Shown: positions 6,470 through 46,538, numbered from the whole stretch's first letter. The stretch: 46,538 nucleotides of DNA, filler included, from Jimgerdemannia flammicorona (GCA_003990765.1; 2 parts of 2 records of this genome joined end to end with filler, not necessarily neighbours in it), one strand, 5' to 3'. Notes: generated from the sequence alone by a model not told the origin. Program-made: numbers and translations.

Positions 6470-9400
6470 TTTTAGCCAACTCTCTCTTTCTACTAAACTT
6501 CTTGGTCATCTAACACCTAGTTGCCTCAGCTCTTCAGTATAATATCCTGTACCTTTCTTAAGACCCCCAGCTAGTACTGCTTCCTCTGATACTACTACTC
6601 TTATACCACCTCCCAGAGGAGCCACCACTACTGCTCAACTAATTCACCTATCCCCATCCATAGGTCTCATTTGAACCCCATCACCAATGTACTGCCATCA
6701 GAACCCAGACCTCTAAAACTCAGTCCAGTCTGCTCTAGACATCATCAGTCTCTTCCACCAGCTGGCACTTGACTACCAGACCAGTAGAATTCCCTAACTA
6801 CATACTCTCAGAGCCCCAATAACCCTCTAGAGTCTGCTAATATTCCTCAATACCTGGATTCACTACCAGGACATACTCTGGTATCTGAACTACCCCTCTA
6901 TCTATCTTACTACACCACTTACATTCCCAACCACCTTCTACCTCCATCCATCCTATCCTGTAATCCAGCATTATATTTTTCCTCAAGAATCACCACCATA
7001 CCACCCAGTATTTAGGTGGCACAACCTTAAGTAAGGAGGCCCCCCATCTCCAGACCTAACTCCAATCCCAGCCTTCCCTGAATCTGGCCTTCTGTTAACC
7101 CACTGGCCACTGCTCAAGGGGACCAGATCTGATCCATTCTATTGCCTCAGATAGAGAGTACTCTGCCAACTGCTGGCCCCCAACTTGCAGGTCCTCTAGC
7201 CACTACCATCACTATTCTGGATTCTTACCCTCACTCATCCCCTACCCTGCCAGCCCTATAGCCAGCCAGGCCTCTACAATACTCCACTAGAACCTCTTAA
7301 ACCACAATCTACTAACTCTTCCCATCTGGAGTAACTCTTGCATATCCTTCCAGACCTCACCATAGGGGCAGAACCTGACCTTCCAATTGTCTATTACTAG
7401 TCTGCCCCAACTACCTTCTCTCAACTCTATCAATCAATACTTCTACTAACCTCTGAGAACTTTCAACTGCCTCTAAAAGTCCACCAACCCCAGACCTGTC
7501 TACAACACTACTGTCTTCCAACCAATCTGCAGCCACCTACCTTACCACAATCATCCTTTCACTATCTTCTTCAACCACTGTACCACTCATTCAGGAAAGT
7601 CTAGATGGTATCCCAAGTACCACACCTTTGGCAACCAGTATATGTTCAGAACCACTACTTTTCTTACTAAGGAGAAGTACCTCTCTAATAAGTCTGTTAA
7701 AGCATCCTTCCACTTCTATATTATGCCACACCACTACTCTTTCAGCAATACTATCTCATATACTGAGAACCAGATGTCCAAGTAATAGACAGCTTTCTCC
7801 ATGGCCACTGTCTGTCTAAATCACTTATTCTCTCCCAAACCAGCACCAAGCTTCATTATCTCATACTTACCCCAGTTCAATTTTGCTCCTGCCATCCTCT
7901 CATATAGTCCTGCCCCTTTCTATAAGCTCTTCATATCCTCCAAACAACCTAACCCCACTACTATATCATCAGAAAAAGCCCCCAGCCATCAGACCACATT
8001 ACTCATCTGCAATACAGTAAGCTGTCCCTTCAGCCAAGCCAGTAAAAACTCCAAGGAGAGAATATATAAAAGGGGAAAAAGAGAGTCACCCTATAGCACA
8101 CCCCTCCCCAAGGTAAACTCTGGACCACTCCACCCATTCATCAGTACAGCCACTCAGCAATCTTACACAAGCCCCATCAATCTCCTTGCATCTGCTGCAC
8201 TGAACCCTATCTTCCATAGTAATGCTTTCAAATAATTCCACCACACCCTGTCATATGCCTTCTCTTGATCCAAGAAGACCATCTATCTATTCACTTATCA
8301 GCTCCTGCAGCCCTTCAACATATTCTGCACCCAGGCAGTACTATCTCTAATCTGTCTCCTCTTGACAAAACTATGCTGATTCTTACTCACCAAACTGCCA
8401 ATCCACTGCTACATCCCTAGCCAGAATCTTAGACACCAACTTTCTGTTCACATTCAGTAATATGATAGGCTGCCAATTCTACCACATGTGCTGATCCCTC
8501 TTCTCCTTATATAGCAGAGAGACTAAACCAAGAGAACCATTTCCAATTCAGCTGCCTTCTCTCAGAATAAAGTTTGCTATTTCCACTAACCAGCCACTGA
8601 ACTCAATCTGGAACTTCTTCTAGAATTCCCAAGATAGCCCATCCTCCCCAGGCAATAAACCTGCTTGTACTTTCCTCAACACCTCTAATACCTCTTTAAG
8701 GACCACTACTCCCAATACTGCCCCACCCATCTCTGGCAGTACTTCCACCAGCCAACTGCCAACTAAATTGGTATTATCTCTCTACAATACCTCACCCTCT
8801 ACAGGCCCCCATTCATCTTGCCAGAGAGCCTGCCATTACTCTGAAATTTCACCCAGCATTTCTGCAATTCTAGTAATCTTAGTACCATCCTCTCACAATA
8901 CTGAGGTCCAACTATATCATACCCTCTTGGCCTTCAGAACACCCAACAAATATATAGTAGACTGCTCTTCTTCTTCCAACCACTTAGCCTGTAGCCTCAC
9001 CAGCAGACCATCTATCATGCTATCCTTAGCTGCCTTTAATTCTAGCTACAACTCAGCCACCTCTGCTGCTAATAGGGAGCATATCTCCTCTGATAAGTTC
9101 CCCCCTTCCATCAATCTCCGTTGCCATTACAGCTCTTGTTTGACTCTCCTCTTCTTATTCTTCTGCTTCTTACTTACTACCTCTCCAATATCATGTTAAT
9201 AGGCACTTACTAAGTGTTTAAATTTACCCCATTACTGCTCAATTGGCTGACCTTCACCCTTCCACCACATTATCTCTTGTCTTACAATTGCAATAAATTG
9301 TTCCTGCTCTGCCCACCTTCTGAGTAGAGCTACATTGAGCCACCAGCATCCCCTATTCCCACTGATAGCCAGAAATCTACTACAAACCTCTACTCCCCAA

Positions 9401-10073
9401 TGATCTGACCAAGGGTACCACTATGTAAACTTAGCAATGTCCAGTATATTACCCTAGAATTCTGCCACCAGATCCCAGTCAATCCTTGTTCCCACCAGAC
9501 TCTCATCAACTGGATACTACTGAGTAAAGGGCCCTGACTTTTCCCCCTGACACTGCTGGACACTATCAATCAATCCCATATCTCTCTCAATTCAAAGCTA
9601 TTGCAAAAGCTCAACAGAGACCACTACCATAATGTTCTATCTTGTATCATATTAAAGTCCCTCCCTAGAATACCCAGCCCAACCTCCTCTCAGTCCTCCC
9701 AAGCCAGCCAGCTCTCCACTCATTAGTTTCACTCTCTGCCAACTATCAGAAGATAAACAGAGCCCACTACTAGTCCATATCTAGCACCTTCTTTCAATCT
9801 ACTCCAAATTATTCAATCACTATAAACCTCTATCTCTACTAGCTTATCTCTATCAATACTAACTAGTATGCCCACCTATATATTCCAGCCAGCACCACCA
9901 TACCATTCCCTACTCCACTTCTCATAATCCTGCTCACCATAGGCTTGAACATCCTGAAGAAGCACTATATCATACCTCCTGACTTTCAGCTACCAAAACT
10001 GACATTGTTGTTTAATGCTATCACATAGACTATTAACATTTAGTGATAATATATGCAGACTGTTCATCATCAT
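6470..10073 (-). pseudogene. LINE ORF2 (APE endonuclease plus reverse transcriptase), many stops
   Basis: APE start HILSLNVNSL...DIVLLQD. RT motifs VFLDQEKAYDRV, RGVL*GDSLFPLLY, GAFSDDIVV. 3' end approximate. Confidence 0.88.
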
Positions 10074-10079
10074 CAATAA

Positions 10080-11830
10080 AATGTTTAAAGCTCTGCAGGA
10101 ATCGCCACCACCTTCTCTGCCCTGCTACAGATGATTTCCTTTTGTTTCTCACAGATAGCCCTCCAGATACAAGTCCCACTCATGCTGCTACAGAAAGTAT
10201 CCATTCACTCTGATGCAACCTTACTAATATCTGCCATCTTTTTCCCATCTATATCATACTCCTCATCATCCAGAAGTGCTGCTACCATCACTGTTACCAA
10301 CTTCAGTTCCTGTATCACAATATTGAGAAATCCCTCCCAAGCCTCCTGAGATCTATGAAATACATCTACTTTCTTGATATCTTCCTCTGTGAGTTTCTTA
10401 AATACTGCCTGATATCAGCTATCTGTTGTCATTACCAAAGGCCCAGAGGTAGCCAGTCTAGGATTCCTACTTAACTCCTAAAGCAACTCTCTATCAGCTG
10501 AGACATTGGAGGCCATGTCCACCAGATCATCTTCTTGAGCCTCACTACTTTGTCTGTCTCCAGATATTCCCAATGAACATTTACTGCCCCCACTATATGG
10601 GTGTCCTTCTGCTGAGTCTCCAGCACTATATCTATAATATCCTCAAAGCCCCCCTCTCTCATCTCCTCCTTCTCAGTCCACTTCTCTGTTACTGATACAT
10701 AAACTGAACTCTCCACCCCCCCTAGCTGTAAGAAAGATACCTTCATAGTCTCCACCTCCTCTATCTGATTCTTAGCTACTTCTGCCCTCACTACTTCCTT
10801 CTTTTTCAAGCCCTTGAGAACTGTCTGCAGGCATTCCCAGTTTGTTTTCCACTACTGCTTTCTCCTCTCATCTATCAGAATCCAGACCCAGTCCTAACTC
10901 TTTCTACCTTTGCTTCTACATATCCTTTGCAGCCTCTCTCTCCTCTAGGCCAGCAACAACTCCTCCTCCTTCTGCTTAGATCTCTTCCTCCTCCAGACCT
11001 TATACTCTTGATCATCAATATGAATTACCTCCAGCCCGTCTCTCTCTAGCCCTGTGGCTGCCTTGCTCTCTAACCTCACCATTACCTCACAGTTGCCATT
11101 TCTCAGCTTGGTCCCTTCCCAGAACATAAAGCCAAAATCAACCATTTCACCAAAGCCCCCAAGTGCCTCTGCCACCATCTCCTTAGTCTTCTGCCTCTCC
11201 AGAGTCAGCAACCCCTCCACCACTAGATATACAGTATGTGGGTCCCACCTCAGGCACCTTGCCATCCCAACCTTGATGCCCTTGACCACCAACTCTTTCT
11301 CCAGAGCCTTCATCATCTCCTCCTTCTTGATAAATCCAATATTGACTGTCTCTGCAAATGGAATGAACTTCAGCAACTCTGCACCAGCAACCTTCTTACC
11401 CACTAGTCTCAGAATCTTCCTAGCAGACATATCCAGCCCCAAGAAGTTCACCAAAATCATCTATATCAATACTGATTTGTGAAAGAATGGGCACACCACC
11501 AGTTCACCAGAGCCAGCTACCATTGTCACCTTCCCTTTACCTCCAGATACTCCAGCAGTTACTCCTCCAGTCCTAGTAAGCCCACCAGCAGTCTCTCTCC
11601 CAGCTACTGGCCTAGTTCCAGAAATACTAGTCTCTGCCATTATACCCAGACCTCTGTCTCCTGTCAGTTACCTGACCTGTCATCTGACCTAGCACCTGAC
11701 TCCCACTCCTGACAACACTACACCTCCCCTGCCCTACCATCTGAGGCCTAGCCACTGTCCTCCTACCCCCCACCACAGTATATCAATTATCAATACTAGC
11801 AGACCTCTCCTGACCACTAGCATCTCCTGC
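10080..11830 (-). pseudogene. LINE ORF1 (RRM-like plus charged helical region)
   Basis: ORFs 10945-11460 (RCLRWDP...GFMFWEGTKLRNGNCEVMVRL) and 10471-10809, directly upstream of ORF2. Boundaries approximate. Confidence 0.75.
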
Positions 11831-12121
11831 CATATAGCTTGCTCCAGTCACCATTATATAGCTTTTGGAGAGGCCCAGGCCAGGCCTCCTCCTCTCTAAA
11901 TGCTCAGAACCAGATGAACTTTAGCTCACCATTTACTCAAAAATAGTCAGAATTTGATAAAACTTATAATAACTTGAAACTTGACCCTTGCTGCACCTGA
12001 TATATTTGAGAATGTAAAGTAAAAACTTGAAAACATATTGCTTTTCACATAAGAATTCTTGTGTGGCTTAGCTTGGTCAGTTTGGTTTGAGCAAAAGAAG
12101 TTCCTAAGTACCACCAGTCTC

Positions 12122-26457: not shown

Positions 26458-26538
26458 GTTGAGTTGTTTTGTGGTAGGTTTGGGAAAGGTAAAAGCTTGC
26501 AAGAGAAGAGTATGTATTTTTTGAAATGTTGGACGCGG

Positions 26539-27925: not shown

Positions 27926-28388
27926 TATAATAGTTCTAGTTTCTTTAAGAGAAAGCAGCTTAATCTGGAAGTTCTAGTTAGTCTAAAGTAGCTTCAAGAG
28001 ATACTTAAAAGTTCAAGTGTTCTTGAAGAATTTCTGGAAGAAAATATTCTGAGCTTTATTCAGGTAGAGAATAAGGATATTTATATATGATCTAAAAGAA
28101 AGATCCAGAAGGATCTTGAAAAGAAAGAGAAATATCAAGAAATAAGTTCTCAGCAAAGCTGACTAATACTGTTCTATAATGTTCTGAAAGGTTCTATAAC
28201 TAGCTAAGACAAGATACTTAGTACCAAAGAAAGATAAGAATATTCTAGTAGTGTCTAGACATCAAGAGAAGATTTCTAAGTAAGTAGAAAGTGGCAGAAT
28301 ATAGTAGAATATTTAAGAAATAACAAGAAAAGACTAACTAAAAAACATGAAAATATACTAAGACTAAATATGACTATAAATTATTATA
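27926..28388 (-). repeat. 3' LTR (463 bp)
   Basis: Direct repeat of 33613-34076 and 44761-45224. Polypurine tract adjacent at 28389-28402 on the minus strand. Confidence 0.93.
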
Positions 28389-28739
28389 TCTCTCTTTTCT
28401 TAAGAACTAATATCCTCATTGAGTTCTTAGGTAATACAAGACTAGATATACTTAACCAAAATTTCTCAAACTTATATTGGCACATTAGTAGAGATTGACC
28501 ATCCTTATATAGAGCAGAGGGTCTATTATCAGATTAATCAACTAGGAGGGGTTCGAACCCAGCTAGTAGCTTTATTTTGATAGACTTCTTATTCATTAAA
28601 TATTCTGCTGGTTTTAGGATTCCAAAGTAAACTTCAAATGTATAAGATACTGATTATTACTATAGATTATTGACAATTCAAGAAAGTTACTATAGAGATT
28701 GGGTAATGTGTTTTATCTTGAAGTTTTGAACTAGATCTT

Positions 28740-28867
28740 AAGAGTTCTTGAGGTTGACCAGTAGTTTCCAGGTAGTATCATATTCAAAGTAATCCATCCA
28801 CTTAACTAGATATTCAGAATAGTGATAGTAGATTTATTTGTCAAGGATTTTCTCAGCTTTGTACTCA
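28740..28867 (-). pseudogene. Integrase C-terminal chromodomain
   Basis: EYKAEKILDK*IYYHYSEYLVKWMDYFEYDTTWKLLVNLKNS. Confidence 0.88.
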
Positions 28868-29097
28868 ATATAGTCTTCAATAATCACAGGGGCAGATGGC
28901 TTAGAAATTTGACCAGAGTAGAGCAGTAACTAGTTTTAGATCTTGAGGTATGATATATGAAAGACTAGGTATACTCTTATGATTTCAGATAGCTTGAGGT
29001 AGTAGGAGAATATAGAGACTTATTTAGTGATCTTGAAAGGTCCAATATACTTGAGTTGAAACTTATTCAAAGGATGGTTGACTTGAGATTATATTTT

Positions 29098-29124
29098 GAA
29101 TATTTATAAAAAAAAAAAAAAAAA
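29098..29124 (+). mobile_element. Extremely 5'-truncated retroposed insert (about 10 nt plus A17)
   Basis: GAATATTTAT(A)17 flanked by the 13-bp direct repeat GAGATTATATTTT (29085-29097, 29125-29137). Removing it restores integrase LSTKNLKI*SQVNHP. Confidence 0.85.
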
Positions 29125-32100
29125 GAGATTATATTTTAAGATTCTTAGTAGATAGTAGAACTTGATCTTCAATAGTGTAAGTGATATTATGATATTTCTT
29201 ATTAGTATACTTGACTTGATGCTATTGAGTCTTTTGAAGATTCATAGTAATAATCTTAAGTAGTTTGTCTATTTTGTCTATAAGACTCTTAGTAGTAGAG
29301 ACTTATATTTAACTACTTTTTTTGAAAGAGAATAGACTTACAAGAGTCTTGGAATCTTGACCATAAAGTAACCAAAAAGAGAAAAGACTAATAGATGATT
29401 GGATGGTATTGTTGTATATGAACTCTATATAAGTCAGATAGTGGTCTCAATTATCTTACTTATAAGAAATATAGTTTCTAAGTATTTGTTCTAGAGTTCT
29501 GTTCATGTACTTGGTTTGTCTATTAGTTTGTAGGTAAAAGATAGTAAATATAGCCAATTGGGTTCCTAGAGTCTTGAAGAGAGTTTGCTAGAAGTAACTG
29601 GTAAACTTGGGGTTATAATTACTAATAATTACTCATAGTAAGTCATAGTGATAGAAGATGAACTTGAAGAAGATTTTTACAATCTTGGGTATAGTAGTAT
29701 TGATGGTAGTTGGTTCAGTAACCATAGTCTTAGTCAGACAGTCAATAAATATAATGATAGCATCAGTATCAGATTGAGTTTGTAGTAGTTGAATTATGAA
29801 GTCCATGATAACTTACTTAAATTTCTTAGAAGGAATTGGTAGTGGTTATAGTAAACTAGTTGTCACTTAGTTGGTAGACTTGTTGTATTGGCATAGATTA
29901 TAGCTGGCAATATAGTTCTTGATTTTCTTGACCATACTTGGCCAATAATAGTAGCATTAGATGTTCTTGACAGTCTTCTCAATTTCTAGATAACTAGCAA
30001 GAGGAGAGTCATGGTGTTCTTGTAAAACCTTATAATATAGGTTCATGTTTTCAGATAGATAGACTTAGTCTTGATGATAGATCAGATTATTCTTAATAGC
30101 ATATATATCCTTGAGCTCATTTAAGAAAACTCTAGTAGTGACTGTGTCTTCTTTATAAGCTTGCCTAATTTGGTCTAGGAATTCTGATACCAAGGTGACT
30201 TACATGATTGTAGTGAGGTCAGAGTATCTTGATAAGATATCTAGTACTATAAGTATCTTACTAGGCTTGTAGATAATCATTAGATTGAAGGTTTGAAGTT
30301 TGAGGCTTTACTTGGCTTATAGATATGACAGAGTAGGTTAGATGTTGATATACTTAAGGAATTGATGGTCAGTAATGACATTAAACTCAATATCTTCTAG
30401 ATAGTATCATCAGTGGTCTAGTATATGTATTATTGCCAGTAATTCCTTCTTATAGATAACTAGCTTTTGTTTGGCTGAAGCTAACTTGTGGGACTTGAAA
30501 GCAATGGGATGATATTCTTTATTATTATCTTATAACAGAACTACTCTAATGGTAAAATTTGATACATTAGTAATAACTATGAATTTTAGACCTTAATCTA
30601 CATTATATAGAACTAGAGCATAGGTCAGATGATTCTTGAGTTCTTGAAAAGCTTATTGACAGAAGAGATCTCAGGTATAGGGTACATAGTAGTCTGAGTA
30701 TAGAGTCTTTCTTATGAGATTAGTCAGTGACTCAGCAATGCTAGAGAAGTTTCTGACAAAGTAGCAGTAGTAGCTAGCTAGACCAAAGAAGGATCAGAGT
30801 TCTATAAGGTTTGATAGAATAGACTATTCTTAAATTGCCACTATCTTGTATAGATCTACTTGAATTCCTTATATAGAGATAATGTAGCTAAGATATTTGA
30901 CTTATTTTTTGAAGAATTTGCACTTCTTGAGCTTAGTATAAAGCTTGTGTTTTCACAGGATCTCCAGAACTATTCAAATATATTTGAGGTATTCTTTTTT
31001 AGTTATACTAAAGATCAGAATATTGTCAAGATATATCAATAGGAAAATAAATAGTTAATTCTTGAATATCTTATTCATCAGAGTCTGGAATATGGCAGAT
31101 ATATTGGTGAGATCAAATACTAAGACCAAGAATTCATAGAGTCTAAAGAGGGTCATGAATGTAATATTGAGAATATCTTCTGACTTAATTTGAATTTGGT
31201 GCTATCTTAATATGAGGTCCAACTTAGTGAAGTACTTGGTATTCTTAAGAGTATTAAAGATTTAATCAATCAAGAATAGTAGATAGTAGTTCTTGATAGT
31301 AAGCTTGTTGAGTGTATGATAGTCTATGTATATTTGTAGAGTACTATTCTTCTTTTTGATGAATAAGACTAGTGAGCCATAAGGATATTTGCTTGGCTGG
31401 ATAGCTCCTTATATAAGTAGTTCTTCTAGTTTCTTCTTGACTGCTTCAATTTTAAGTAGTAATATATAATATATATATTTCTTAAGTAGTATAGCTCCTG
31501 AAGTCAGTTCAATTTCATGATCAACTTCTCATATAGGTGGTAGGCCAGATAGCTTATCTAGAAAGACATTTTTGAATTCTTCTAGTAGTAACTTGATACT
31601 TTCATTGACTGATAGTCTCTTGTCTTGTTTTTTGGAGCAGACCATTATAACAAAGGTATATATTATCTTCTTAAGTGCTCTCTTATACTGTATAGCTGAC
31701 AGTATTACAATCTGGGTTTTGCTCATAGTCTTGTCTATCTTGATAGTGATGTTGGCTCTATCTTGAAGTAAGATGACTTCATTCTTACACCAATCAATAT
31801 CTGAGTTGTGTTTTGTAAGCCAGGGTTTTCCTAGGATCAGATCATGATCTCTTAGTAGTATAACCTCAAAGTCTACTCATTCTCAATATTTCTGAATCTT
31901 GATGGATAGTTTGACAGCAATTGACTTGATGGGGTGCAGAGTACTATCTGTAGTAACTATACTATTGTTCTTGAGTATAGGCTTGGTAAGAATCTTGAGG
32001 CTTTCAATGAGGTTCTGATTGATGAAGTTCTCTGCAGCTCTGCTGTCTATAAGTACTTGAACTTCTTTTCCTTTGACTAGATCTTTGAAAATGAGTATAG

Positions 32101-32134
32101 CTTGAACTTGAATTTTACTAAGACTTGCTGCTTA

Positions 32135-32545
32135 ATCAGTACTACCAAAATCTTTTTGATCTTATTTAGTTTCAAGAAGTTCTTGAACTTCTGTAATTTT
32201 GAGTTAACTGGCTTTTTTTAAGATCATTTGTATGACTCAGTCTCCTTTCTTGACTGTGTAGTCTTGATCCTTCTGATTGATAAGTAGGACTTGAACTTAT
32301 CCTTGAAAGTCTAGATCAATAATACTAGTATCTGTATCTAAATAATGTTTAATACTAAGTTCTAATCATGGTGCAATTCTGGCATAATGATCTTCAGGAT
32401 ATTGAACTGCAATTCTAGTAGGTACTAGAGTTCAGTCCTTGGTTAGAATGGTGACTTATTTGACAGAGTGTAGGTCAAGACCAATAGCTCCTTCTGTTTG
32501 ATATTGAGAGATCTGGGCCTTCAGATGAAGCTTTTTGATCTTGAG
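32135..32545 (-). pseudogene. dut: Trimeric dUTPase domain within gag-pol
   Basis: LKIKKLH..AQI..QTEGAIGLDL (motif I), YARIAP*LEL (II), SIIDLDFQG*V (III), KKGD*VIQMI (IV), ETK*DQKDFGST (V). Most deviations from consensus are C>T/G>A changes. Confidence 0.92.
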
Positions 32546-33599
32546 CTCAGATTGACTAGTAGTGGAGTTGACAGGTATATCTTTGGATAATATGGTAACT
32601 GGTCTTGAGAGTTTACTAGTCTTCTTAAGACATTTGGTTGCAATGTATCCTATTTAATAATAGAAGAAATAAGCTCTAGATTTCTTCAGGCAGTCCTTTT
32701 CTTTAGGGGTAAGCTTGGTGTTCTTTTTTTTCATAGTGTTTAAATCTATTAATACTGGGCCAACTGTCCTTGATTAGTTTCTGTAACAGTTCTCAAAGTA
32801 GTTTTTTTTATAGTATTCTAGTTCAAAGTAGTTACCAAAGATAATGATATCAAACCTATCAGTAATTCTCATAGCTTCATCAAGGTTTTTGGACTCTTTT
32901 AGCTCAATCTTGACTCACGTGTTTCTCTTCAGACCTTGGACATAGTAGTCTATCTTTTTGTCCTCAGATATTGCTAGTAGCTCAAGTAGAATTGATAAGA
33001 ATTATGTATTGTAGCTTTGTACAGACTTGAATTGCTTGATGTTCACTAACTTATCTCTGGCTAGCTTGGTAGTATTAGCAGACTTGAACTACCTATAAAG
33101 GGCTCTTTTGAAAGCTTTCTAGTTTCTGATTTATATATATAAGTATATAGATATAGTCATAATATGATTACATCACCAGATAGCTACATTTTCTTAAAGA
33201 AGTGTAGTGGCAAATTAGACTTGTATATCTTCTTTCATTCTTGTAAGCTTAAAGTATTGGTCTAACTAGAAGGTCCATATATCTGTAGATAGTTCTCCTC
33301 AATGACTATTAAAGATATCTGACTTGAGTAGTTTGAAACTAACTAATACTATAGTAGAATGTGATATACTTGTAGTTCTTGTTTTCTGCTGTTCTAGTTG
33401 TACTTGAAGTTCTTGAATTTGGTAGGCTATAGTAGTAATTATTTCCTCTATACTAACTTATAGTCCTCCTACTTCTTCTGTAATAGAGAGATCTGACTGA
33501 TAGACTGACTCTTCACAGCTCATTTAGATTTGTGTGACTGGTTGTGACTGGTTTCTGAATTTATGTAAGGTTTCTTAATAAGGCAAGGTGTAATGACAT

Positions 33600-33612
33600 T
33601 GCTGCTACCAAG
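33600..33612 (-). promoter_or_regulatory. Primer binding site (initiator tRNA-Met type)
   Basis: CT-TGGTAGCAGCA immediately inside the 5' LTR. Confidence 0.75.
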
Positions 33613-34076
33613 TATAATGATTCTAGTTTCTTTAAGAGGAAGTGGCTTAATCTAGAAGTTCTGGTTGGCCTAAAGTAGCTCAAAGAGATACTTAAAGATT
33701 CAAGTGTTCTTGAAGAATTTCTGGGAGAAAATATTCCAAGCTTTATTTAAGTAGAGAATAAGGATATTTATATATGATCTAAAAGAAATATCCAGAAGGA
33801 TCTTGGAAAGAAAAAGAAATGCCAAGAAATAGCTTCTTAACAAAGCTGACTAATACTGTTCTACAATGTTCTGAAAGATTCTATAACTAGCTAAGACAAG
33901 ATACTTGGTGCTAAAGAAAGATAAGAATATTCTAGTAGTGTCTGAGCACTAAGAGAAGGTTTCTAAGCAAGTAGAAGATAGCAGAACATAGTAGAATATT
34001 TAAAAAATAACAAGAAAAGACTAACTAAAAGATGCAAAAATATACTAAGACTAAATATAATAGTAAAATTGTTGCA
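33613..34076 (-). repeat. 5' LTR (464 bp)
   Basis: Direct repeat of 27926-28388, adjacent to the PBS. Confidence 0.93.
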
Positions 34077-34139
34077 TACTATCTTTATATTTACTATCTT
34101 TATTATAATACTATAACCCCTCCTCTCCTTAGAGAACTA

Positions 34140-34378
34140 TTACTTAATACACTTATAAGTATACAACCTTCAAGTCAATGAAATCACATGTTACCCTCTA
34201 AACAAATCTGGAAATTATATATAAGATTATAAAGCTGAGTCAAACTGAAGTTATAGAATATAAAGCTAAGTCAACTTGAAATTATAGAATATAAGATTTA
34301 TACAAACAGAACCTTACTAACCAGGACTAAATATATATATACTGAGTACTCAGATGTATTGAAATAGAGAACTACAAT
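34140..34378 (+). repeat. ~240-bp direct repeat, copy 1 (copy 2 at 41126-41365)
   Basis: Shared GAAATTATATATAAGATTATAAAGCTGAGTCAAAC...ATTGAAATAGAGAACTA with an internal ~27-bp subrepeat. Confidence 0.85.
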
Positions 34379-34420
34379 AAATCAAACAAACAACTACAAC
34401 TCTTGAATATATATATAATC

Positions 34421-37400
34421 ATGACTACTAAGATCTACAACTATATCTATGCTGATATTTGAAATACCATTATCAATCAAGCCACACCTTTTCTGCCCCT
34501 CATAAATATCCATAGTCTAGCATCTCTCTACTTTATAGAAGCTCAATGGAATACTCTGAACATACTCAGCAAAGCTCACTGAATTAGACAAATCTCAAGC
34601 TACTACCAGATTGGCCATCTCCTAAAAGATATAGTTGAATACTATCATGATATAAACATTACCCAGATGTCTCAATATCAGAAACTCATCACCTATAAAT
34701 ATCAAGAACTCTTTTATAAATACAGTATCTTTATTCCCCACCTCTGAGTTACTACTGCTAAAATGGTTACCACTCTATCCTATGACCAAATCAATAATAT
34801 GATACAAAAACTCAACTACAAGTATATCAAGTATATTTAGACTATAGACAGAACCTTTCTGCACCCCAATGATCATATCTTACAAATGTTCCAAATTAGA
34901 TATATTATAAAGGATATCTATAATATAATCTAGTTTGATAATAATGAAGTAGAAGATAATGATCTCTCTGATACTGATATAACTTTTAGCCAAAGATCTC
35001 TGCCAGCATAAACACTTTTCTCCAGTATCACTTAGATTATACAACTTTCTAGTAATACTTATTAATACCATTTTTGAAGAAAAGTTACTAGTTTCATAAC
35101 AATCAATAAGTATTCCAAGGTATATACTGGGCAGAGTGGCTCTGATGTGTTCAACTAGCAGTATGTAGGGAGGGGCCCTAGCTTGGGGGGAAGTATGAGG
35201 GGCCTGCTGGCAGGAGGATGTAGTAAGAGAGGGGGTGGTATTGGAGACCAGAGAACAGAAAGGGTAAGCTTTGCAGAAAAGATGAAGGGGGATCAGCAGA
35301 GAGCTGGGCTAGAGAGTTGGCTGAGAGAGAAAAAGGCAATAGTGAAGACTACAGAGCAGAGACTTCAAGGGAGAGCCCCTCTAGAGAACCAGAGTAGTGG
35401 AGCTAATGGTATAGTGGCTGAGGAGGTGACTGCTGATGAGAGTGTGACAGGCAATCTGGAAAAAAAATCTAGATAGAACTACTGATAGTGGACTGAGTGA
35501 TGGGAAGGGCATGAGGCCTAGAGATCTGACTGATAGTATAGTGGGACTGGTAGTGGCACTATTATTCAAAAAGTCAATCTCAGAATTTGCAGTCATCCTA
35601 TACTTCAGAGGCTTGGCATTGATAGCAAAAATGGTTCTGAGGCTAATAGCAAAGTAGGTGGAAGACACAGTATCTGTTAAGTTCTTGAAGGGCCTGGAAG
35701 GAGTAGAGGTAGGCTTTGAGGAGACAGGGCCACTAGAGGAGACACTGAAGGCTGGGTTGATGGTTGGAGAGATATATATCTCAGTGGCATGGTGCTTGAG
35801 ATGGGACCCCAGAGTGATATAGCTCCTAATGAAGAGAGTGCCTATGGTGACTGTGGTGGAGATGAGGAGAAGAGTGGAGGAGGTTATGACTGAGTATGGG
35901 GAGGTGGTTGATATAGGGTTTAGGGTCTGAGAAGGGACTACCTTCTAGATAGGGGATGTTGACATTCAGATTAAATTGGCAGGAAGAGAGGCTATTGATA
36001 AGGCATGGGATTGGCTTTTGGTAATGATATAGAGAGCCTTTGTATACAAGGTAACAAGAGTAAAGAGGAGTGAAGAGGAGGATAAGGATCTGTTAGAGAT
36101 GCTAGAGGAGCTGAGTGGTGTAGTAGAGCAGAGGACAAAGGCTTGGAAGATGTATATGGAGTCAACACACCTGGAGATTGTTGATAAGAGGTGAGTCTAT
36201 ATTGACAAGGGGCTGTAGGAGAGGTCCCAAGATTGTAGGAGGTAGAGAGAGTTGCTAGTGAGTCTAGAGGTGAAGAAGACAAGGACTACTGATAGAAGTG
36301 AGGATGCTGGGAGAGCTTTGGCAAGTATCTGGGCTGAGAGACAAGGGGGAAATGTAGAGGTGGGTCTAGAGGAGGCCAGGAAGATACTGAGTGAGGATCT
36401 ATATAAGAATGGTACATTTGGAGTCTGGAAGCAGTCTCCTATACCAACCTCTCTTATCAGATAGAGACTGGCTGTAAGGGGCTGAGCAGTAGAGGATGTG
36501 CTCATATATGGGGCTCAGTGGGTACACTTTGGGATTCCTGAGGTGGCAAAAGGTGGACAAGTAGTAGCAGTTGGCAAGGAGGAGTAGAATGAGGCTACAA
36601 GTGTAAGAGAGGACATCTCAATGCTGAGTGGTGGTCAACCTGCAACCTCTGGGGGGAAAGAAGTGGGGAATCTACTGTAGATATGTTGGATGATGAACAA
36701 TCTTATAGCTGAGGAACTGGAAGAAGTGGACATGAGAGTGATGAGTGATGAGCACTGAGTGAGGATCTTATATAATAATGGAGTGGTAGAGGTACTAAGG
36801 GCAGAAATACTGGCAGTTTTCCTGGAGAAAGAAGGGTATAAGGTAGACAAGAAAAGAGAGGCTGAGCTGGCAGTTGTTACTGGTGAGTAGGCTATCTACT
36901 GCTGAGAGAAGCATCATAGTTTGTAGCTCTAGTAGAAGGCCTGCTTAGAGTATCATGAGAATTTTAGAGAAAAGAAGAATGGGGAAATGGCTGAGCTACT
37001 GAAAGGACTAGAAACTAAGAGGGCTAAAGAGAAGACAGTGTCTGCTGAATAAAATCTGGACTTGGCAAGAGAGGTGAGGGATATGGAGCAGTAGAGGATA
37101 TATTTTCAATTCTATAATATTTCTTATGAATAATACAACTAACATTTTTTCACTTAATATGAATGGGTTATAGGATTTATATCAGCATTGGAACATTTTT
37201 GCTTAGCTGAAGGAACTAGAGGCAGATCTCTTTCTTTTGTGGGATATCAGATATAAGAATAATTTGAATAGACTAGAGTAGACTAAGGAATGGGGAGAAG
37301 AGGCCATATAGAATAGCAAGGTAGGAATTCTGGTCTGAAGAGGCAGAGGAGAGATATGAGAAGTGAGGAGTTGAGAGATAGACTGATTTGGAGAGTGAAT

Positions 37401-40400
37401 TCAGGCAGGTTGGGAGCCAGTTATAGTAGAGTCTTGCTACTGCCCTATTGTATGGATAAAGTATGTGGGCTGGGTGAAGGGCCTCCAGAAAAGTGGGGCT
37501 CTTATAGAGACTGGAGTGAATATACTTGGAGGAGACTTCAATATAGTCCAGAATATGTTAGTAGATAGAACTGATAGAGGGAGGGGGGCTGAGGGTCAGA
37601 GTAGTGGTTTGGAAGCATGGAAGAAGGTAGAAAGACTGAGTGTACTAGTAGGTACTGGCAGGGGATTTTGGGGCAATAGGAGGATCTATATACACTGGAT
37701 CAGGAGTCTGGAGACAAGGATTAACTGGGTCTTAACTGCAGACTGCTGGGGATTTGATATCTGGAATCACTGGAGATTGAGTGGTATTCATGGTCAGATT
37801 ATTGGGGGTTATTAGGACAAGAATATTTTGGAAGAAGTGGGGATAGGCCTGGACATTGGTACCTAAATTCCTCTTTATTAGACAATAAGGAACTGTGAGA
37901 TAAGTAGGCTGTAGACATTTAGTAGAGGGTAGAGGATTGGATACAGAAGGGGGTCTCTATAGGTATCAGATAGATATGGCTGAAGAAGGCTACTAGGGTC
38001 TACTGGGGAGAGGCTGGCAAGATGGCTGGCAGACAGAAGAGGTGACAGGTGGCCTGAACTTCTGTTAGACTAGCTTGGCTTCTGGAGGATAGAGCTGGGC
38101 TATTAGCCCTAGAGGGGGGGGGAGACTGGTATTTGTTATAGGCATAGAAGGAGATTGAGGAGTTATAATTAATAGTGAGAGAGGAGAAGGAGGTGAGGGT
38201 ACAGAGTCTGGCAGTATGACTGTATTGGTAGGGACTAGAGAAAAGAGAGAGGCCCTCTAAATTCCTCACAAGGGCCCTTCAGGTAAGGAGAGTTCAGCAG
38301 AGATAGGAGAGGGCATTGAATCCTGATAGACATTTAGTGCATAGCATACATGACATTCTTATATTGTTAAAGGGAAAGTGGAGTGATCTGTGGAGTGAAG
38401 AGGAGGGGGAGGGGGCTGATGAGACTGCTATTGACCATATCTTGGAGGATTAGTATCCACTATCAGTAGGAGGAATAGACAGTCTGGTATTGCCAGTATA
38501 GGAGGAGGGGATTCATCAGGTTCTTACTGCAACTTTGCTGGGCATGGCACTAGGGGAGGATAGCTTGTCCTGGGACTTTTGAAAGAAGATAGTGGGAATC
38601 CCCAGTATACTAAAAGAATTGATAGTGATGTATAACTTGGTGCTAGGGTCAGAAAGATGGGTGGGTGATCAGGACCTGAGGCTGGTGGCTCTGCTTTATA
38701 AGGACAAAGGCAGGAGAGAGGACTGGAGAAACTGGTAGCTGATCATGCTGCTGGATATAGACAGAAAGCTAGTTACTAAGTTAGTGATAATGAGATTGCA
38801 GAAGGTGGTCCAGCAGATGTTGGGGAAGGAGCAGTAGGGCTTCATGGGTGGTCAGCTCATTAGAGATAGTACAGCTTGAGTATATAGTATTATTGAGGGA
38901 GCATGGGCCTGTAGACTGGATGGGCACCTGGTTTTTCTGGATCAAGAGAAGGCATACAATCATGTCTGGTGGGTCTGGCTGGCAAAAGTCCTGGATAGAA
39001 TTGGTGTCTCTCAGCAGTTCTGAGTGGCAATGATCAGCCTACTAGAAGGGAGTTAAGTGGCACTCATATATAATGGGTACTGAGGGGGGGCTTTTTCTCT
39101 GAGTAGGGGGGTCCCTCAAAGGGACCCACTGTTCCCTATTTTGTATGTACTCTCATTGGAGCTATTGATGGACAGGATTCAGCAGAAGATAGTAGGGCTC
39201 TTAGTATTAGACATTGGATAGAAGGTTGAAGTCTTTGCAAATGATATGGTGGTTGGCCTGAGATCAATCACCAATATAGTGAAACTCAAGACAATGGTAG
39301 AGTAGTATGAGGTGCATTCTGGGACTAAACTTAACTAGCATAAGTGTGAAATAATGGTGTTAGGTAATGGCCTGATGGAAAGGGATGTCATTGGAACAAT
39401 TGTCTCTACTGAGGAGACAGTGAGATACTTGGATATTTATTTATCAGTATATAGATCTGTTCTTCCCAAACTCTGGTGGGAGCAATAGGTGGTTATCTGG
39501 AGAGAGGCTCTGTAGAGCTGAGGAGGCTGCCACTTATCTCTGACAGATGTGTCTCTATCTTGAATACTTACTGGCTGCTGAAGTTATGGTATCTGGTATA
39601 TTATCTGGACTTCCTGGCCTGGATGATAAAGAGACTACTGAAACTAGCCAAGGGATAGATCTGGGTAGAGAAAAGGAGTCATATTTAGCTGGGAAATTTT
39701 ATCCTTACCAGTAACTAGAGGGAGACTTGGGCTAGTTGACTTCCTGAAGAGGTTATACTATCTGAGAGTATGGTGGCTGAAGAGAGCTGTTGAGCTGAGG
39801 GGTAGCAGCTGGGTTCTTCTATTGAAGAAGGTCTGAGAGATAAGATTCTCACCAAGAGGATCTATAGAAGATCTTCTGTTCTTAGTCAGACTTCAGAACA
39901 TTGGACATATACAATTTAAGGGCTTCTGGTGAAGTGTTGCTAAAGGGATATACTACATTAGCATTTATTAGTAGAGAGATGAGGGAGAAAGGCCTTGGGG
40001 CCCAGTGATATGGAGATGGGACTGTGTATTACTGGGGGGTATCCTCCTTAGTAACTTTGATATTAGTGATGGAGTTGAGTACCAGAGGGGGTTGGGGCAG
40101 GATCTGTGGCCCAGCAAATAGCAGTTAGTGAGTGTTGATAAGGAGTGGGACTGGAATGGGATCTGGAACTGGTGTGCTGAGGTTCAGCAGTGGCTGTTAC
40201 CAAGTATTAGATAGTCTGGTAGTGTATGTTGAGAAGGAATACCATGCTCAACTTTCACTCTAGCCACCAGGTGGAAGGGGGAACCTTTGACTATAAGGAG
40301 TACTATAATGTTAGATAGGAAGAGAGTTATATACAGACACCTGAACATTAGCTAGGAGAGTGTGAGGTACTCAGTGACTTCTGGATAGCAGTTGGGAAGA

Positions 40401-40843
40401 GGTTGGGTATTGAGCAGAGGGGAGATGGTGTAAGGAGTCAGTGGGAGGATCTGCAGGATAGATTGATGAAAGGGGTTGGAAGAGAGTACTTACTTTAGAG
40501 TGGGTTCTGGCTATATGAGTAGGGTTGGCAGGACACTAGCTATATGTATTTAAGGATAGAAGATAGTTGGGTTTAGGGGTATGACTATTGTAATAAAAAG
40601 GACTGATAGAGGATATTCTGATGGATTGGTAGTATGGGTGGGGACTGCAGAGTGGTTGGCAGTATTGTTTGATAGAGAAGATATGTGAATAGAGTGAGGG
40701 AAGAGTTGGGGTCATGGGAGATAGAGTAATTTTTAAGTATGAAGAGATGAGAGGGGAGGAAGGAGGAGAGTTTTCCTATAGGGATTGGGTAGTGGGAGGA
40801 GATAATGTAAATTTATATATAGATGCAAAGTCTGAGTAACTAT

Positions 40844-40874
<31 letters not shown>

Positions 40875-41217
40875 TCTACCAGCCCTGATCACTCCACCAA
40901 TCTTGTAAATGAACTTACAATAGTTCATAACTATCTATAAGACCTATTGAGATAATGACAACTAGTATAAATATCAAGCTGCATTTATATCTAATTACTT
41001 CAACTATAATAAAGAAACTGGAGAATATAACTTGTATCTCCAGACAACTCTTGAGATCAAACCAACAACCCCACCTCCTAAGTATAAATAAAATGAACCA
41101 CAGCCATCAGTCTACTACAATCCTACAACTTATAGTGCTTGTAAACACACAACCTCCAAGCTATCAAAATCACATATTACCTCAGAACAAATCCAGAAAT
41201 TATATATAAGATTATAA
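34421..41217 (+). pseudogene. Relic ~300-codon ORF of unknown function split by the LINE (34421-35007 plus 40884-41217)
   Basis: A single frame from ATG 34421 (MTTKIYNY...SYYQIGHLLKD...YQELFYKYSIFIPHL*VTTAKMVTTLSYDQI) stays in frame across the TSD. The stops are explainable as CGA/CAA/CAG transitions. Confidence 0.55.
35008..40869 (+). mobile_element. Full-length L1/Tx1-like LINE, degenerate (~5.9 kb)
   Basis: 14-bp TSD AGATCTCTGCCAGC (34994-35007) / GGATCTCTACCAGC (40870-40883). Poly(A) 40844-40869. ORF1 (WCLRWDP), APE (ILGGDFN), RT (FLDQEKAYNHV, GVPQRDPLFP, FANDMVV). Confidence 0.92.
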
Positions 41218-41365
41218 AGCTGAGTCAAACCAAAGTTACAGAGCATAAAGCTGAGTTAACTTGAAGTTACAGAATACAAAATTTACACAAATGAAATCTT
41301 ATCAATCAGAACTGAATATATATACTGAGCACTCAGATATATTGAAATAGAGAACTATAATCACA
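41126..41365 (+). repeat. ~240-bp direct repeat, copy 2
   Basis: Matches 34140-34378. Confidence 0.85.
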
Positions 41366-41491
41366 TTTGTACTAATAGTGCTATTATCTATAGAAGATAT
41401 ATAGATAGTAAATCTGATAAAAGTGAAGATAATATACCCCTTCTCCACCCACTGACACTCTACCTAGCATATAAGACAGATGATGCTCTCT

Positions 41492-44400
41492 TGTGAGATG
41501 GTAATATGGTCCCAACCTATTACTATATGAATGAATAGAGAGATATTATTCAAGAACCTCTCTTTTTAGATAACTACTTCATCAGAGATGATGTCATCAA
41601 TGGTGATCTCATTAAAGACTACCTAGACAGTATCTAAATCTATAGATAGCTTAGCAGTTATTAGTATAGTTAGATTAGTCTTATATAATGTGACTATATA
41701 TTAACTCAGCAGTCAGATGATCTTTTGATATATCAGTTTATACTTGTATTATATGACTGCATTCTGACTCAACAAGATACTAAGTATTATATATAGTCCA
41801 GATAGCCTCTCATTAGTATAAATATCCTCTCTTCAGACCTCAGAAACTCAGACATGAATAGATCTGAACATACAAGAACTTCTGAACACTTTTCTGTAAT
41901 ATCTCTTCACATAACTACTCCTAGTATAGCTATATCATAAATAGTAAATAAATCTATTTAATAACTATAAATCACTTTTAAGTAAATCTGTACCTTGTTA
42001 GATCTCACTCTAACCACATCATGAAATTTTCTAATTAGGTATTATTTATAGCAATATACCAATTCAACTAAGCTAGTTTTAGTTTTTTGAACTTCCTGAA
42101 ATTCAGAAAATTTTAAACATCCAGAACTAGTCCAAAAAAGAACTTTGATTGAGACATCAATCTGATCTTAAATAGAGAATATACTCTATATAAAATTGAT
42201 CTTGATCTTAAGAAAACAGTCTTTCAGAATATCTAAACTTTGAGAAAATGCTTCTAGAACTACATGCATAACAGTACTTTAATAAATAACCCTCTTATAA
42301 CTTAGTAGCAGTAGTTTATAATCCAATTCTGCTTCAAGATACTTTTTTACCATACTATAAATCTCTATGAGAATTCCTATAAGTTAGTATAAAGCCCAAC
42401 CTCTAAACTAGAATTTATTCTAAACTATCTAATAATCTGGAGAGAATTGAATCTAATGTATAAGGACAATTTGATCTCTATATCTATAATAAGTGAGACA
42501 GACTTCATTTACAAAAAGAAGTACTCTTATTAAATCAGTAGATAGATGAAACTCTATATACTAAACTCCTTACTCTACACTCCATAAGTCAAGACAAAGA
42601 AGGTCTTATAGAAGTCTTCTTTACTCTTCTCAATAAGAGTTTCATTAGCTCTACAAATTCAAGTAATCTAGAACAACCAGCAGCCATCTTTCTAGCCTTA
42701 GTTCTCCACAAAGCCTAAGCCTCTGTAGTCAAGTAGCTCAACTCTACTGACTTTCACTATACTAGGACCAAGACTATCTTATACTACTACTTTCAGAATT
42801 ATAAGGCCTGCTATATTCTTAAAGAAGAAGCAAGAGAAACCCTTCATCAATAATCTGATTCTGAATTAGAAGCAGACCTAGCTATAGTTCTATCTAAAAC
42901 TAAAACTAATACTGAATCAGATCAAGCTTTTAAATTAAGCTTATCTGAAATCTAGTATACAACTGATACTATCTACTTTAATACTGAGTAAACTCAATTA
43001 CACAGGAACTAAAGCAAGGAGAAGGAGGAGTATCTCAGTGAATTTAATTTCAGATATACTACTAAAGAAGATGTATTTTTTTTTTTTTTTTAATAGACTC
43101 AATGTTCTACAGATTTTTATTGGAAGGAAACCTAGACTATATAGGCCAAAACCCTCCCCCACCACCAAGCACTACCCTCTCATTAATCTAGACTAGCTAT
43201 TGTCCAGCAGCTTGACTATGCCAGATGCAGTAGGGCCAATTTGGCCTATACCTCATTCTGTGCACCATGCTCTCCCTACTACTAGAGAAAACCCAGCCAT
43301 ATACTAATGACTGAAAGTACATGCCCAAGAACCCAATGTATATACAAGGCCATACCTAAGCCAAATAGAATAACCCCTGCCATCTCAAAGAGAATGATAG
43401 GTAAAGAAAAAATCCTCATCAAAGTACAATATACCTGGTTCTCTCAGTCAAGGTGAGCAAAGGACTTATATGTAAGGCCCCAATATCCCACTACTCAAGC
43501 CTGTGGGCCTTGATCACATTGCCATGTCAGCTCCCAGTTTCAGTTGAGTGCAGCCAAGATATCTGAAATGAGTAGCCTCGGGCCCCCCAACCCCCCCTGA
43601 TGACTAGGGCCAAATCTGTCAAATTACCAAAAGAAGCCAAGAGTGATACTTATCACCTAACCATACTGCACCAATCAAAAGGTCCCACTGAAGCAGTATC
43701 TACCTCAGCCCTAACAATTGCTCCCAGCCTGGTACCCTACTGGTTCACCATTATCACCCTTCCTCCTATCTGTAACAGCCATCTCTCCTCCCATCCTGAC
43801 AATACCTGAAAAGCAGTCACCTATGCCAGAACCACACTTGTCAAGAAGCTTGCCAAAGCCAGAGGGCCCCACTACAGGCACCGAGGACCTGCAGGTAATC
43901 TATACTGAGTACTTGACACCTAAGGTTGGCTGACTTCCTATATAGCCTGAGACATACTGAGACAGCACCTTGTTAGTGATAGCAAAAGAAAAAAGGTGCT
44001 GCACCAAAATGGATACACTCCAGATGTAGCCAAAGACACCAGAAATCATGAAAAAGTAGAGAAGACACCGATCTGACACTGATAAAGGGGCAACTCATCA
44101 TCATTGCCTCCCTCTCACTGCCCTACAATAGGTACAGCAAACTAACCCAAGGTAGAGGGGGTAATAATTATGGAAAGTAAACTTGGAAGGTTGCCTACCA
44201 AACCATTATGACTGATAAGGTAGTAGAGAAAGGGGTAAAGAAGATGTATTCCTCTCAGGACAAAATATACCTATAGGACAATAGATAGTTATCTATTAAG
44301 TCCTTATTCCAGACTTACAACAGTTACTCCAGCAACTTATACAGACTTAAAGAATACTATTATATTCTACATCAGTACCTTAAGTCATATCAATAATACT

Positions 44401-44760
44401 ACTATCAATAGTCTAATTACCTCCAGTAAACAATATGGTAAACCAACAGATTTTAGACCTCACAGCTCAGATAGCTATAATGGTAGCAACTATTACTACC
44501 TTAGCTGAACAGACCTGACTAATAAAAAGTCTGAGTCTACCTACCTTTAATGATACTATACAGGAAGTCCAAAGCTTCATTAGTATAGTTGATATTAATT
44601 TTGAAGTCAACCAATGGACCAATGAGTAAGTTGCTAACTGTCTTCTGATAAACAATCAAGACCATACTCTGAAACAACTCTTTGCTACTAATATGGCCTA
44701 TGTCTATTAAGTTATTATATTCTTTTAAGGATCTGCTGAAGAATAGTGGTGAACCCTTCC
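41492..44760 (+). mobile_element. Second LTR retrotransposon family: 5' LTR, PBS and gag relic, interrupted
   Basis: LTR ~41492 (TGTGAG) to 42299 (CCCTCTTATA), then a mutated PBS TAGTAGCAGTAG. Gag motif LPTFND..EVQSFI..VDINFEVNQW...F*GSAEE*W at ~44535-44750. The LTR is homologous to 45951-46538 (inverted). LTR start inferred from terminal symmetry. Confidence 0.72.
43078..44235 (-). mobile_element. 5'-truncated LINE (~1.16 kb)
   Basis: Poly-T at 43076-43091. 15-bp TSD TAAAGAAGATGTATT at 43063-43077 and 44236-44250. Confidence 0.85.
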
Positions 44761-45920
44761 TATAATGATTCTAGTTTCTTTAAGAGAAAGTAGCTTAATC
44801 TGGAAGTTTTAGTTGGCCTAAAGTAGCTTGAAGAGATACTTAAAGGTTTAAGTATTCTTGAAGGATTTCTGAGAGAAAATATTCTGAACTTTATTCAGAT
44901 AGAGAATAAGAATATTTATATATAATCTAAAAGAAAGATCCAGAAGGATCTTAGAAAGAAAGAGAAATACTAAGAAATAGGTTCTTGGCAAAGCTGACTA
45001 ATACTATTTTACAATGTTCTAAAAGGTTCTATAACTAGCTAAGACAAGATACTTGGTGCCAAGGAAAGATAAGAATGTTCTAATAGTATCTGGACACTGA
45101 GAGAAGATTTCTAAACAAGTAGAAGATAGCGGAATATAGTAGAATATTCAAGAAATGATAAGAAAAGACTAATTAAAAGATATGAAAATATACTAAGACT
45201 AAATATGATTGTGAAATTGTTACATCCCTCTCTCTTTAAGAACTAACATTCTCATTGAGTTCTTAGGTAACACAAGACTAGATATACTTAACCAAAATTT
45301 CTCAAACTTATATTAGTGCATTGGTGGAGATTGACTATCCTTATATAAGATAAAGAGCCTATTACCAGATTAACCAATTGAGAGAAGTTTGAACCCAGCT
45401 AGTAGCTTTATTTTGATAGACTTTTTATTCATTAAATATTCTGCTAGTTCTAGAGTCCCAAAGTAAACTTCTAATATATAAAGTACTGATTATTGCCATA
45501 GGTTATCAATAATTTAAGGAAGTCACTATAGAGATTGAGTAATATATTTTGCCTCAAAGTCTTGAGAGTTCTTGAGGTTGACCAGTGGTTCCCAGATAGC
45601 ATCATATTCAGAATAACCCATCCACTTGACTAGGTATTCAGGATAGCAGTAGCAGATTCATTTGTTAAGGATTTTCTCAGCTTCATACTTAATATAGTCT
45701 TCAATAATCACAGGAGCAGAAGGCTTAGGAATTTGACTAGAGTAGAGCAGTGACTGATTCCAGGTCTTAAGGTATGATATATGAAAGACTGGGTGTACTC
45801 TTATAACTTCAGGTAGCTTGAGGTGATAGGAGGATATAGATACTTGTTCAGTGATCTTAAAAGGTCCAATATACTTGGATTGGAACTTATTCGAAGGGCA
45901 GTTGACTTGAGATATATCTT
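44761..45920 (-). mobile_element. Second copy of the chromovirus: 3' LTR (44761-45224), PPT, chromodomain and integrase tail
   Basis: Colinear with 27926-29097. Chromodomain YEAEKILNK*...EYLVKWMGYSEYDAIWEPLVNL and the IGPF motif. Confidence 0.93.
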
Positions 45921-45950
45921 CACCTTTCTCTGGTAATATTCAGGTTATAC
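45921..45950 (+). mobile_element. 5' terminus of a LINE of the 35008 family
   Basis: CACCTTTCTCTGGTAATATTCAGGTTATAC vs CACTTTTCTCCAGTATCACTTAGATTATAC (35013-35042): 22/30 identical, and 7 of 8 mismatches are transitions. Confidence 0.6.
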
Positions 45951-46538
45951 TGTAAGAGGGTTACTTTTTAGGGTGACCATTATGTAGTTCTGGAAAGGTT
46001 TTCTGGATATTCTGGATGTTCTGGAAGACCGTTTTCTTATGGTCAAGATCAATTTTGTATGGAGTACATCTTTTACGCTTATTGATTTCAAGATTGGGTT
46101 GACATCTCAACCAAAGTCCTTTTTCGGACTAGTTCTGGATGTTCAGGATTTTCCGTATTTCAGGAAGTTTAAGAAACTAAGACCAGTTTAGTTGAATTGG
46201 CGTATCGCTGCAGACAATACCCAATTAGGAAATTTCGTGATGGGGTTAAGAGTGGGACCTAACAGGGAGCAGATTTACTTAAGAGTGGTTTGTGAGTTAT
46301 GGAAATAGGTTTATTTGCTATTCATGATATTGCTATACTAGGAGTATTTGTATGAAGGGATATTGTGGGGAAGTGCTCAGGAGTTGTGTTCGGATTGTTC
46401 AAGTCTGAGATTCTGAGGTCTGGGGGAGGGGGTATTTATACTAGTGAGGGGCTATCTGGACTATGCTAGATATGGATGTAGCACTAAGTGCCTTGCTGAG
46501 TTGGAATGCAGTCACGTAGTATAAGTGTGATCTGACAT
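45951..46538 (-). mobile_element. LTR of the second family, runs off the right edge
   Basis: Begins TGTAAGAGGG. The reverse complement aligns with ~41730-42299. Retains more CpG than that copy. Confidence 0.8.

Follow-up and report, generated by a model that had tools for sequence, protein, structure and literature searches.

A single base in the integrase region of a Gypsy retrotransposon family of Jimgerdemannia flammicorona, here called hotspot 1, is a real, strong and replicated retro-insertion hotspot. The family has at least one more such site, and the long interspersed nuclear element (LINE) that inserts at hotspot 1 is not target-specific. Hotspot 1 is filled in both Gypsy copies of a 46,538-nucleotide (nt) stretch of DNA (the window), whose coordinates are used throughout and whose positions 23323-46538 are contig G000:C1137, which ends at 46538. 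In this family of about 490 copies, the base has taken no fewer than ten independent hits, probably because relaxed L1-group machinery nicks and primes at this site unusually easily.

Two filled sites in the window

The features at issue are as follows.

27926..34077, minus strand: Gypsy copy 1 (chromovirus-like, decayed), with long terminal repeats (LTRs) at about 27926-28390 and 33613-34077 (pair identity 89%)
44761..45920, minus strand: Gypsy copy 2, 3' LTR (44761-45225) and pol end as far as hotspot 1; left target-site duplication (TSD) at 45909-45920
29085..29140, plus strand: hotspot 1, filled in copy 1 by left TSD, stub of 7-10 nt, A17 and right TSD; antisense to Gypsy
45921..45950, plus strand: first 30 nt of a full-length LINE, assigned to the L1 group, at hotspot 1; 2-4 mismatches to the 5' termini of other copies
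45951..46538 (contig end), plus strand: LTR of a different LTR retrotransposon, interrupting the LINE; start base common to at least eight other copies
28485..28510, plus strand: hotspot 2, empty in the window, nick before 28491; pol end, past the chromodomain-like region

The two Gypsy copies are 85% identical across 1173 nt and are colinear as far as 45920. As an earlier preliminary description had claimed, both are filled at the same integrase site and in the same orientation, the insertion point following base 29084 in copy 1 and base 45908 in copy 2. Translations of natural Gypsy copies contain stretches that we take to be the integrase C-terminal region and a chromodomain-like region; hotspot 1 lies in the former, upstream of the latter. 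The left TSD of copy 1 (29085-29097) is 13 bp long when exact and 15-16 bp when transitions are allowed, and it is followed by the stub, by A17 at 29108-29124 and by the right TSD, which begins at 29125. One base is missing from the left TSD of copy 2.

Copy 2 had been said to switch at this point to the 5' terminus of a LINE related to the one at 35008. The 30 nt after 45920 do match that LINE modestly; taken alone, the likeness is weak, with 2 of 200 shuffles reaching the best window-wide score, and the best window-wide match lies not at the 35008 LINE but at about 4100. The switch to a LINE was nevertheless borne out by other copies: 45923-45950 corresponds, with the mismatches given above, to the 5' terminus of LINE copies L263, L211, L269, L195 and L250, among which L211 and L250 are full-length and flanked by TSDs. 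Because of these matches, 45921-45950 was accepted as a real LINE 5' end. Only these 30 nt are LINE, however; the LTR that follows begins at the same base in the other copies, whose upstream flanks are unrelated. Because the contig stops at 46538, the 45921 element cannot be read as far as its tail.

Recurrence at hotspot 1 across the genome

A genome-wide pattern search returned 477 copies of the empty hotspot 1 site, the pattern having caught 34 of 36 sampled Gypsy copies. In nine contigs, the right half of the site directly followed a poly(A) run; in C17512 and C1419 the first G or Gs after the tail read A, so that the exact nick is ambiguous. The left-junction search gave 11 rows, comprising three known sites, three new retro-type events, one terminal-inverted-repeat element (C15309) and four rows (C1169, C1694, C3185 and C13008) that were dropped as mutated or deleted empty sites. 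The new events were a full-length LINE start with open reading frame 1 (ORF1) in C15968, a copy of RPS21 with an A-run at the contig end in C11552 (L172:1524-1905; Pfam S21e, E = 1e-9 and 2e-7), and an insert of 730 bp in C1296 (L168:1525-2272), which is complete and tail-less, lying between 16-bp TSDs with no A-run. Both junctions were found for five events, the right junction only for five and the left junction only for three, giving 10-13 independent events in total; a probable further junction, in C29153, is known from a row of the match list.

The TSD started at the identical base in all eight left junctions. Its length, a comparison that the preliminary description had called for, was 15-16 bp in seven of the eight and 13 bp in copy 2. 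All events were antisense to Gypsy, and the genome-wide search found no insertion in the reverse orientation at hotspot 1. The cargo consisted of full-length LINE starts (45921 and C15968), LINEs truncated to 16 nt and about 200 nt, a 1.17-kb element, the RPS21 retrocopy, the 730-bp insert of unknown type and the stub. The last bases of the 730-bp insert have an 11-nt run in common with the stub (29099-29109), and because of this run the stub in copy 1 may be the 3' tip of the family to which that insert belongs.

Some further observations concern the inserts in these Gypsy copies. The 5' end of the RPS21 copy is a pyrimidine tract, as are those of the LINE and the 1.17-kb element, and we take such starts to resemble terminal oligopyrimidine (5'TOP) leaders. 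Two elements beginning with the same terminal inverted repeat lie 3 and 16 bp past the nick, in C9944 (L032) and C15309 (L175), respectively; the C9944 element is about 390 bp long, has an 8-bp TSD and is presumably hAT-like. In C1169 (L167), an insertion consisting solely of A21 lies between target duplicates at Gypsy position ~30480, which indicates that tail-only insertions occur elsewhere in the Gypsy family.

Insertion rate and independence of the events

The baseline rate was taken from 60 of the 477 empty-site copies, on the largest contigs (332 kb of Gypsy). These held 14 tails at 13 mapped positions, equivalent to 2.1e-5 per strand-position per copy. Extrapolation to the family gave about 113 tails, a rough figure given the lower coverage on small contigs and the breaking of contigs at poly(A). 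Hotspot 1 had eight tail junctions, the discovery copy excluded, against 0.01 expected under a uniform rate (P ~3e-21), and was thus hit at about 800-fold the family mean. Three conserved GAGA sites nearby in the same Gypsy region, which served as cold controls (28467, 28854 and 29579), had no tails (0, 0 and 0), with patterns that covered 30/30, 34/35 and 31/32 sampled copies. The genome-wide enrichment that the preliminary description had proposed to look for was found.

Independent insertions into a preferred site had also been proposed, with a single insertion followed by deletion named as one case that would overturn the idea. In its broader form, this alternative derives the filled sites from one ancestral insertion, which would have multiplied through amplification of Gypsy, segmental duplication or gene conversion before deletions of varying extent. 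The tree of host copies leaves some room for it, being star-like, weakly supported and mostly unresolved, and filled copies are mildly clustered in it (6 changes compared with a mean of 8.9; 7-11 of 500 shuffles were as low). However, the starred branches require at least two changes, and unrelated RNAs adjoin the same left TSD, namely LINE 5' ends, LINE 3' ends, the 1.17-kb element, RPS21 and the 730-bp insert. In addition, the distance between filled copies is no smaller than that between filled and empty ones: the host flanks of filled copies had a mean identity of 81% (maximum 88%) compared with 86% among empties, and copies 1 and 2, at 84.6%, ranked 11th of 35. These results indicate that the insertions were independent. 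Descent from one insertion is refuted by the differing cargo and is extremely improbable as an account of the site, though it could still hold for pairs of right-only contigs.

Dispersal of the inserting elements and a second hotspot

In the genome-wide pattern search, 2959 LINE 3' ends with a poly(A) tail were counted, and two of these (0.07%) were at hotspot 1, where two to three LINEs are identifiable. Ninety of the first 100 matches listed yielded 89 junctions, all of them distinct; none was at hotspot 1 and four were elsewhere in the same Gypsy. The 1.17-kb element had 499 3' ends genome-wide, which puts it at a minimum of 499 copies, mostly full-length, and the 28 of 30 that had a readable flank were dispersed. 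No similarity was detected between its 3' end and those of the LINEs.

Two of the 14 baseline tails were at a common position, 28491-28492, which was designated hotspot 2. Genome-wide, hotspot 2 had 11 tail junctions, seven in the Gypsy family (two being the discovery pair) and four in a related family, and its inserts included several LINE ends and the 1.17-kb element. It is approximately as hot as hotspot 1, and the two hotspots account for roughly 17 of 110-130 family tails in 2 of ~12,300 bases.

Since the LINE and the 1.17-kb element are dispersed, an mRNA copy occupies the same nick and a second site is approximately as hot, the target-specific LINE suggested by the preliminary description has to be given up. 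Dedicated targeting of hotspot 1 was ruled out by the dispersal of both elements. A stringent LINE aimed at the Gypsy integrase site in the manner of Tx1L, perhaps as a small subfamily among dispersed ones, would account for the ~800-fold excess, the single orientation and the fixed nick, and could be hidden in the right-only contigs (5-6). In the accessible portions of the respective papers, target-specific LINEs with an apurinic/apyrimidinic-like endonuclease (APE) are known in the Tx1 clade (PMC4640811), and Tx1L inserts into the transposon Tx1D (PMC1950540). However, most LINE copies are not at one target here, those LINE ends that can be identified at the site are unlike one another and match dispersed copies, near matches of the 45921 5' end lie at unrelated targets, and hotspot 2, with a different sequence, is used by the same families. 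Nor is there a long consensus of high information, as described below. Such an element is largely refuted for the families seen and is very unlikely overall.

Three recurrent A10-GAGA junctions, which made up 34 of the first 100 matches listed, were rejected as seemingly larger hotspots, the 18 that were fetched being intrinsic A-runs inside repeats. Two other near-identical pairs of tail junctions among the matches listed (G000:C3080/C6014 and G000:C2336/C13823) may likewise be intrinsic A-runs, or else mark hotspots in other repeats.

Assignment of the LINE

The LINEs and the non-autonomous element present in the window are as follows.

35008..40869, plus strand: LINE, full-length, decayed, assigned to the L1 group; A-tail, ~16-bp TSD and reverse transcriptase (RT) matches, at an ordinary dispersed site
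6341..12118, minus strand: second LINE, full-length, decayed; 15-bp TSD, target T^GAGA
43076..44240, minus strand: 1.17-kb non-autonomous poly(A) retroelement; 15-bp TSD; 79% to the insert in hotspot 1 of G000:C17208 (same family)

For profile and PDB comparisons, the decayed RT was translated with X at stops. It matched Pfam RVT_1 (E = 2e-21), and its best PDB matches were human L1 ORF2p (E ~1e-21), with R2 at 4e-7 or weaker. By these matches the LINE is assigned to the L1 group, L1 and Tx1 being taken together and only L1 and R2 proteins having matched in the comparison; no named Tx1 protein was among the RT matches returned. Its poly(A) tail, its 5' truncation and its TSD, which varies in length around 15 bp, are features of the L1 group. 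Poly(A) RNAs also appear to be mobilised in trans, as the RPS21 copy with its 3' A-run and the 1.17-kb element are found at the same nick, and LINE machinery is presumably the enzyme that mobilised both. According to the available parts of PMC4640811 and PMC3747384, the clades that include target-specific APE LINEs are Tx1 and R1; the available part of PMC5203782 held no fungal data.

A less decayed LINE at 12880-16762 ends abruptly inside the RT and has an ORF1 candidate at 13182-14384, an open frame of 400 amino acids. This candidate had no Pfam match, and Atlas zf-CCHC clusters were reached only at 0.83-0.84.

Target preference and selectivity beyond the motif

The first non-A base past the tail was G in 50 of the 89 sampled LINE junctions. 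Among 134 sampled tails, GAGA was found in 14 (11-fold over background) and GRGAT in 8 (16-fold). TSDs of 11-21 bp (mode 15-17) were found for 54 of 163 tails, and T precedes the nick in 13 of the 17 TSDs without a leading A, counted by eye. Genome-wide, W^GAGA(T) is weakly preferred; the target of the 6341 LINE does read T^GAGA, as had been noted earlier. On the strand that is nicked, hotspot 1 has the sequence 5'-TCTC/AA-3', which differs by transitions from 5'-TTTT/AA-3', the L1 consensus according to the accessible text of PMC1950540.

Under the explanation that we consider probable, ORF2p would nick the sense strand of Gypsy at 5'-TCTC/AA-3' and begin target-primed reverse transcription there, copying any poly(A) RNA that it holds, and the other strand would be nicked 15-16 nt further on. 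Site quality would be heavy-tailed, set by a short motif plus local DNA shape, and Gypsy amplification would have given each good site ~490 chances.

Several results weigh against this explanation. A position weight matrix built from 45 non-Gypsy TSDs (9 of the 54 being excluded as Gypsy-sited or doubtful) held ~3 bits over 16 positions; it ranked hotspot 1 407th (6-fold) or 1346th (2-fold) of 12,194 positions and predicted 7-12-fold for hotspot 2. The short motif thus gives only 2-16-fold of the ~800-fold excess, and because the matrix supplies 2-6-fold and the motif at most 16-fold, a factor of ~50 or more is left unexplained. Even a 60-fold site would produce eight or more tails with P ~3e-7. 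The three control sites are of similar or higher rank, and a third candidate position, 28695, which ranked 10th, is not hot, having only its discovery copy and one doubtful match. Pfam and PDB comparisons of the decayed copy, read with X in this stretch, gave no match to an endonuclease domain; PF03372 was present in 12 of 14 homologues, and motifs seen by eye are presumably those of the endonuclease. Finally, the insertions of C9944 and C15309, which resemble DNA transposons and lie no more than 16 bp from the nick, hint at general accessibility rather than at a preference of the LINE endonuclease.

Two additional sequence rules were rejected. A GRGATT(G) super-motif fits only 1-2 of the 134 tails that were sampled, and position 28695 did not prove to be hot. 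A quasi-palindrome with nicks on both strands, whose failure is a further point against the probable explanation, had 36 matches, 29 of them outside the hotspots compared with roughly 20 expected, a denominator extrapolated from 100 listed rows. It is unsupported, since no excess of stems was found in 134 targets and no events in reverse orientation were found. In the accessible portions of PMC1950540 and PMC1635306, nick selectivity beyond the motif is attributed to DNA structure.

The site might instead be hot through cellular state and not through sequence, as a nucleosome-free or protein-bound stretch near the pol 3' end, or as pre-integration Gypsy cDNA, open to any integrating machinery. 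The small share of the excess covered by the motif, the location of both hotspots on the same strand in the last 700 bp of pol, and the two terminal-inverted-repeat insertions, one with an 8-bp TSD, are consistent with this possibility, although those insertions were counted without a baseline for the Gypsy family. On the other hand, the base-precise nick, the fixed orientation and the GAGAT start, which matches the genome-wide preference, point to sequence, and cold positions (28695 and 28854) lie between the hotspots. We therefore regard cellular state as an unlikely cause. We consider improbable a semi-stringent L1-group machinery, in which, over and above the weak consensus, an extended signature in sequence or shape, or else a factor bound to Gypsy, steers ~15% of its insertions in the Gypsy family to two bases at the pol 3' end, always antisense. 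If this were true, the machinery would occupy a middle ground between promiscuous L1 and stringent Tx1L and would disable the integrase of a competing retrotransposon.

Other features of the window

The window is rich in repeats, and these are nearly CpG-free (observed/expected 0.00-0.07, compared with ~1 in gene regions). The LTR at 45951-46538, which is 75% identical to the reverse of 41730-42297, represents another and younger LTR family, whose copies reach 94% identity and of which an older inverted copy lies at 41730-42300. Another repeat, at 17167-21317, is present in two copies of 68% identity, one with a low-complexity tandem region (18423-19030). A CpG-intact host island at 23400-26460 contains a BPG-independent phosphoglycerate mutase gene with an intron and, on the minus strand, a thioredoxin-like gene recognised by eye.

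Comparison with known systems

The present system resembles human LINE-1, which acts in trans on Alu and processed pseudogenes, in its nearest RT (L1 ORF2p), pure poly(A) tails, ~15-bp TSDs, 5' truncation, dispersal and short consensus, and in mobilising a non-autonomous element and a cellular mRNA. It differs in that the nicked strand often ends in C and not in a T-tract, in its very low consensus information, and in the two positions that take roughly 15% of Gypsy-family tails. Tx1L of Xenopus, in Tx1D, is likewise an L1/Tx1-group LINE at a fixed base within another transposon; according to the accessible text of PMC1950540, it is stringent and nicks almost exclusively its own target, whereas >99.9% of the counted LINE ends lie elsewhere here. 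Entamoeba EhLINE1/EhSINE1 is also non-targeted, with hotspots ascribed to a short nicking motif and DNA structure in the available part of PMC1635306, but the LINE and motif are different, and that study used biochemistry where ours uses sequence alone.

Hotspots of this kind in a fungal Gypsy were not found in the literature searched, in which coverage of subscription papers was poor. The nearest precedent, judged by its title alone, is the mys retrovirus-like element, in which Cantrell et al. (2001) reportedly described insertion hotspots of short interspersed nuclear elements, that is, repeated retro-insertion within an old LTR element; in the present case, recurrence was counted over ~490 paralogues of one assembly.

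Parallel retro-insertion hotspots are thus already known, but they have rarely been counted on several hundred target replicates with matched cold controls. The hotspot is not a new targeting system; the excess over the short motif is the part worth following. What selects an L1 insertion site besides the endonuclease motif becomes testable from one assembly, and insertions common to repeat copies are unsafe markers of common descent.

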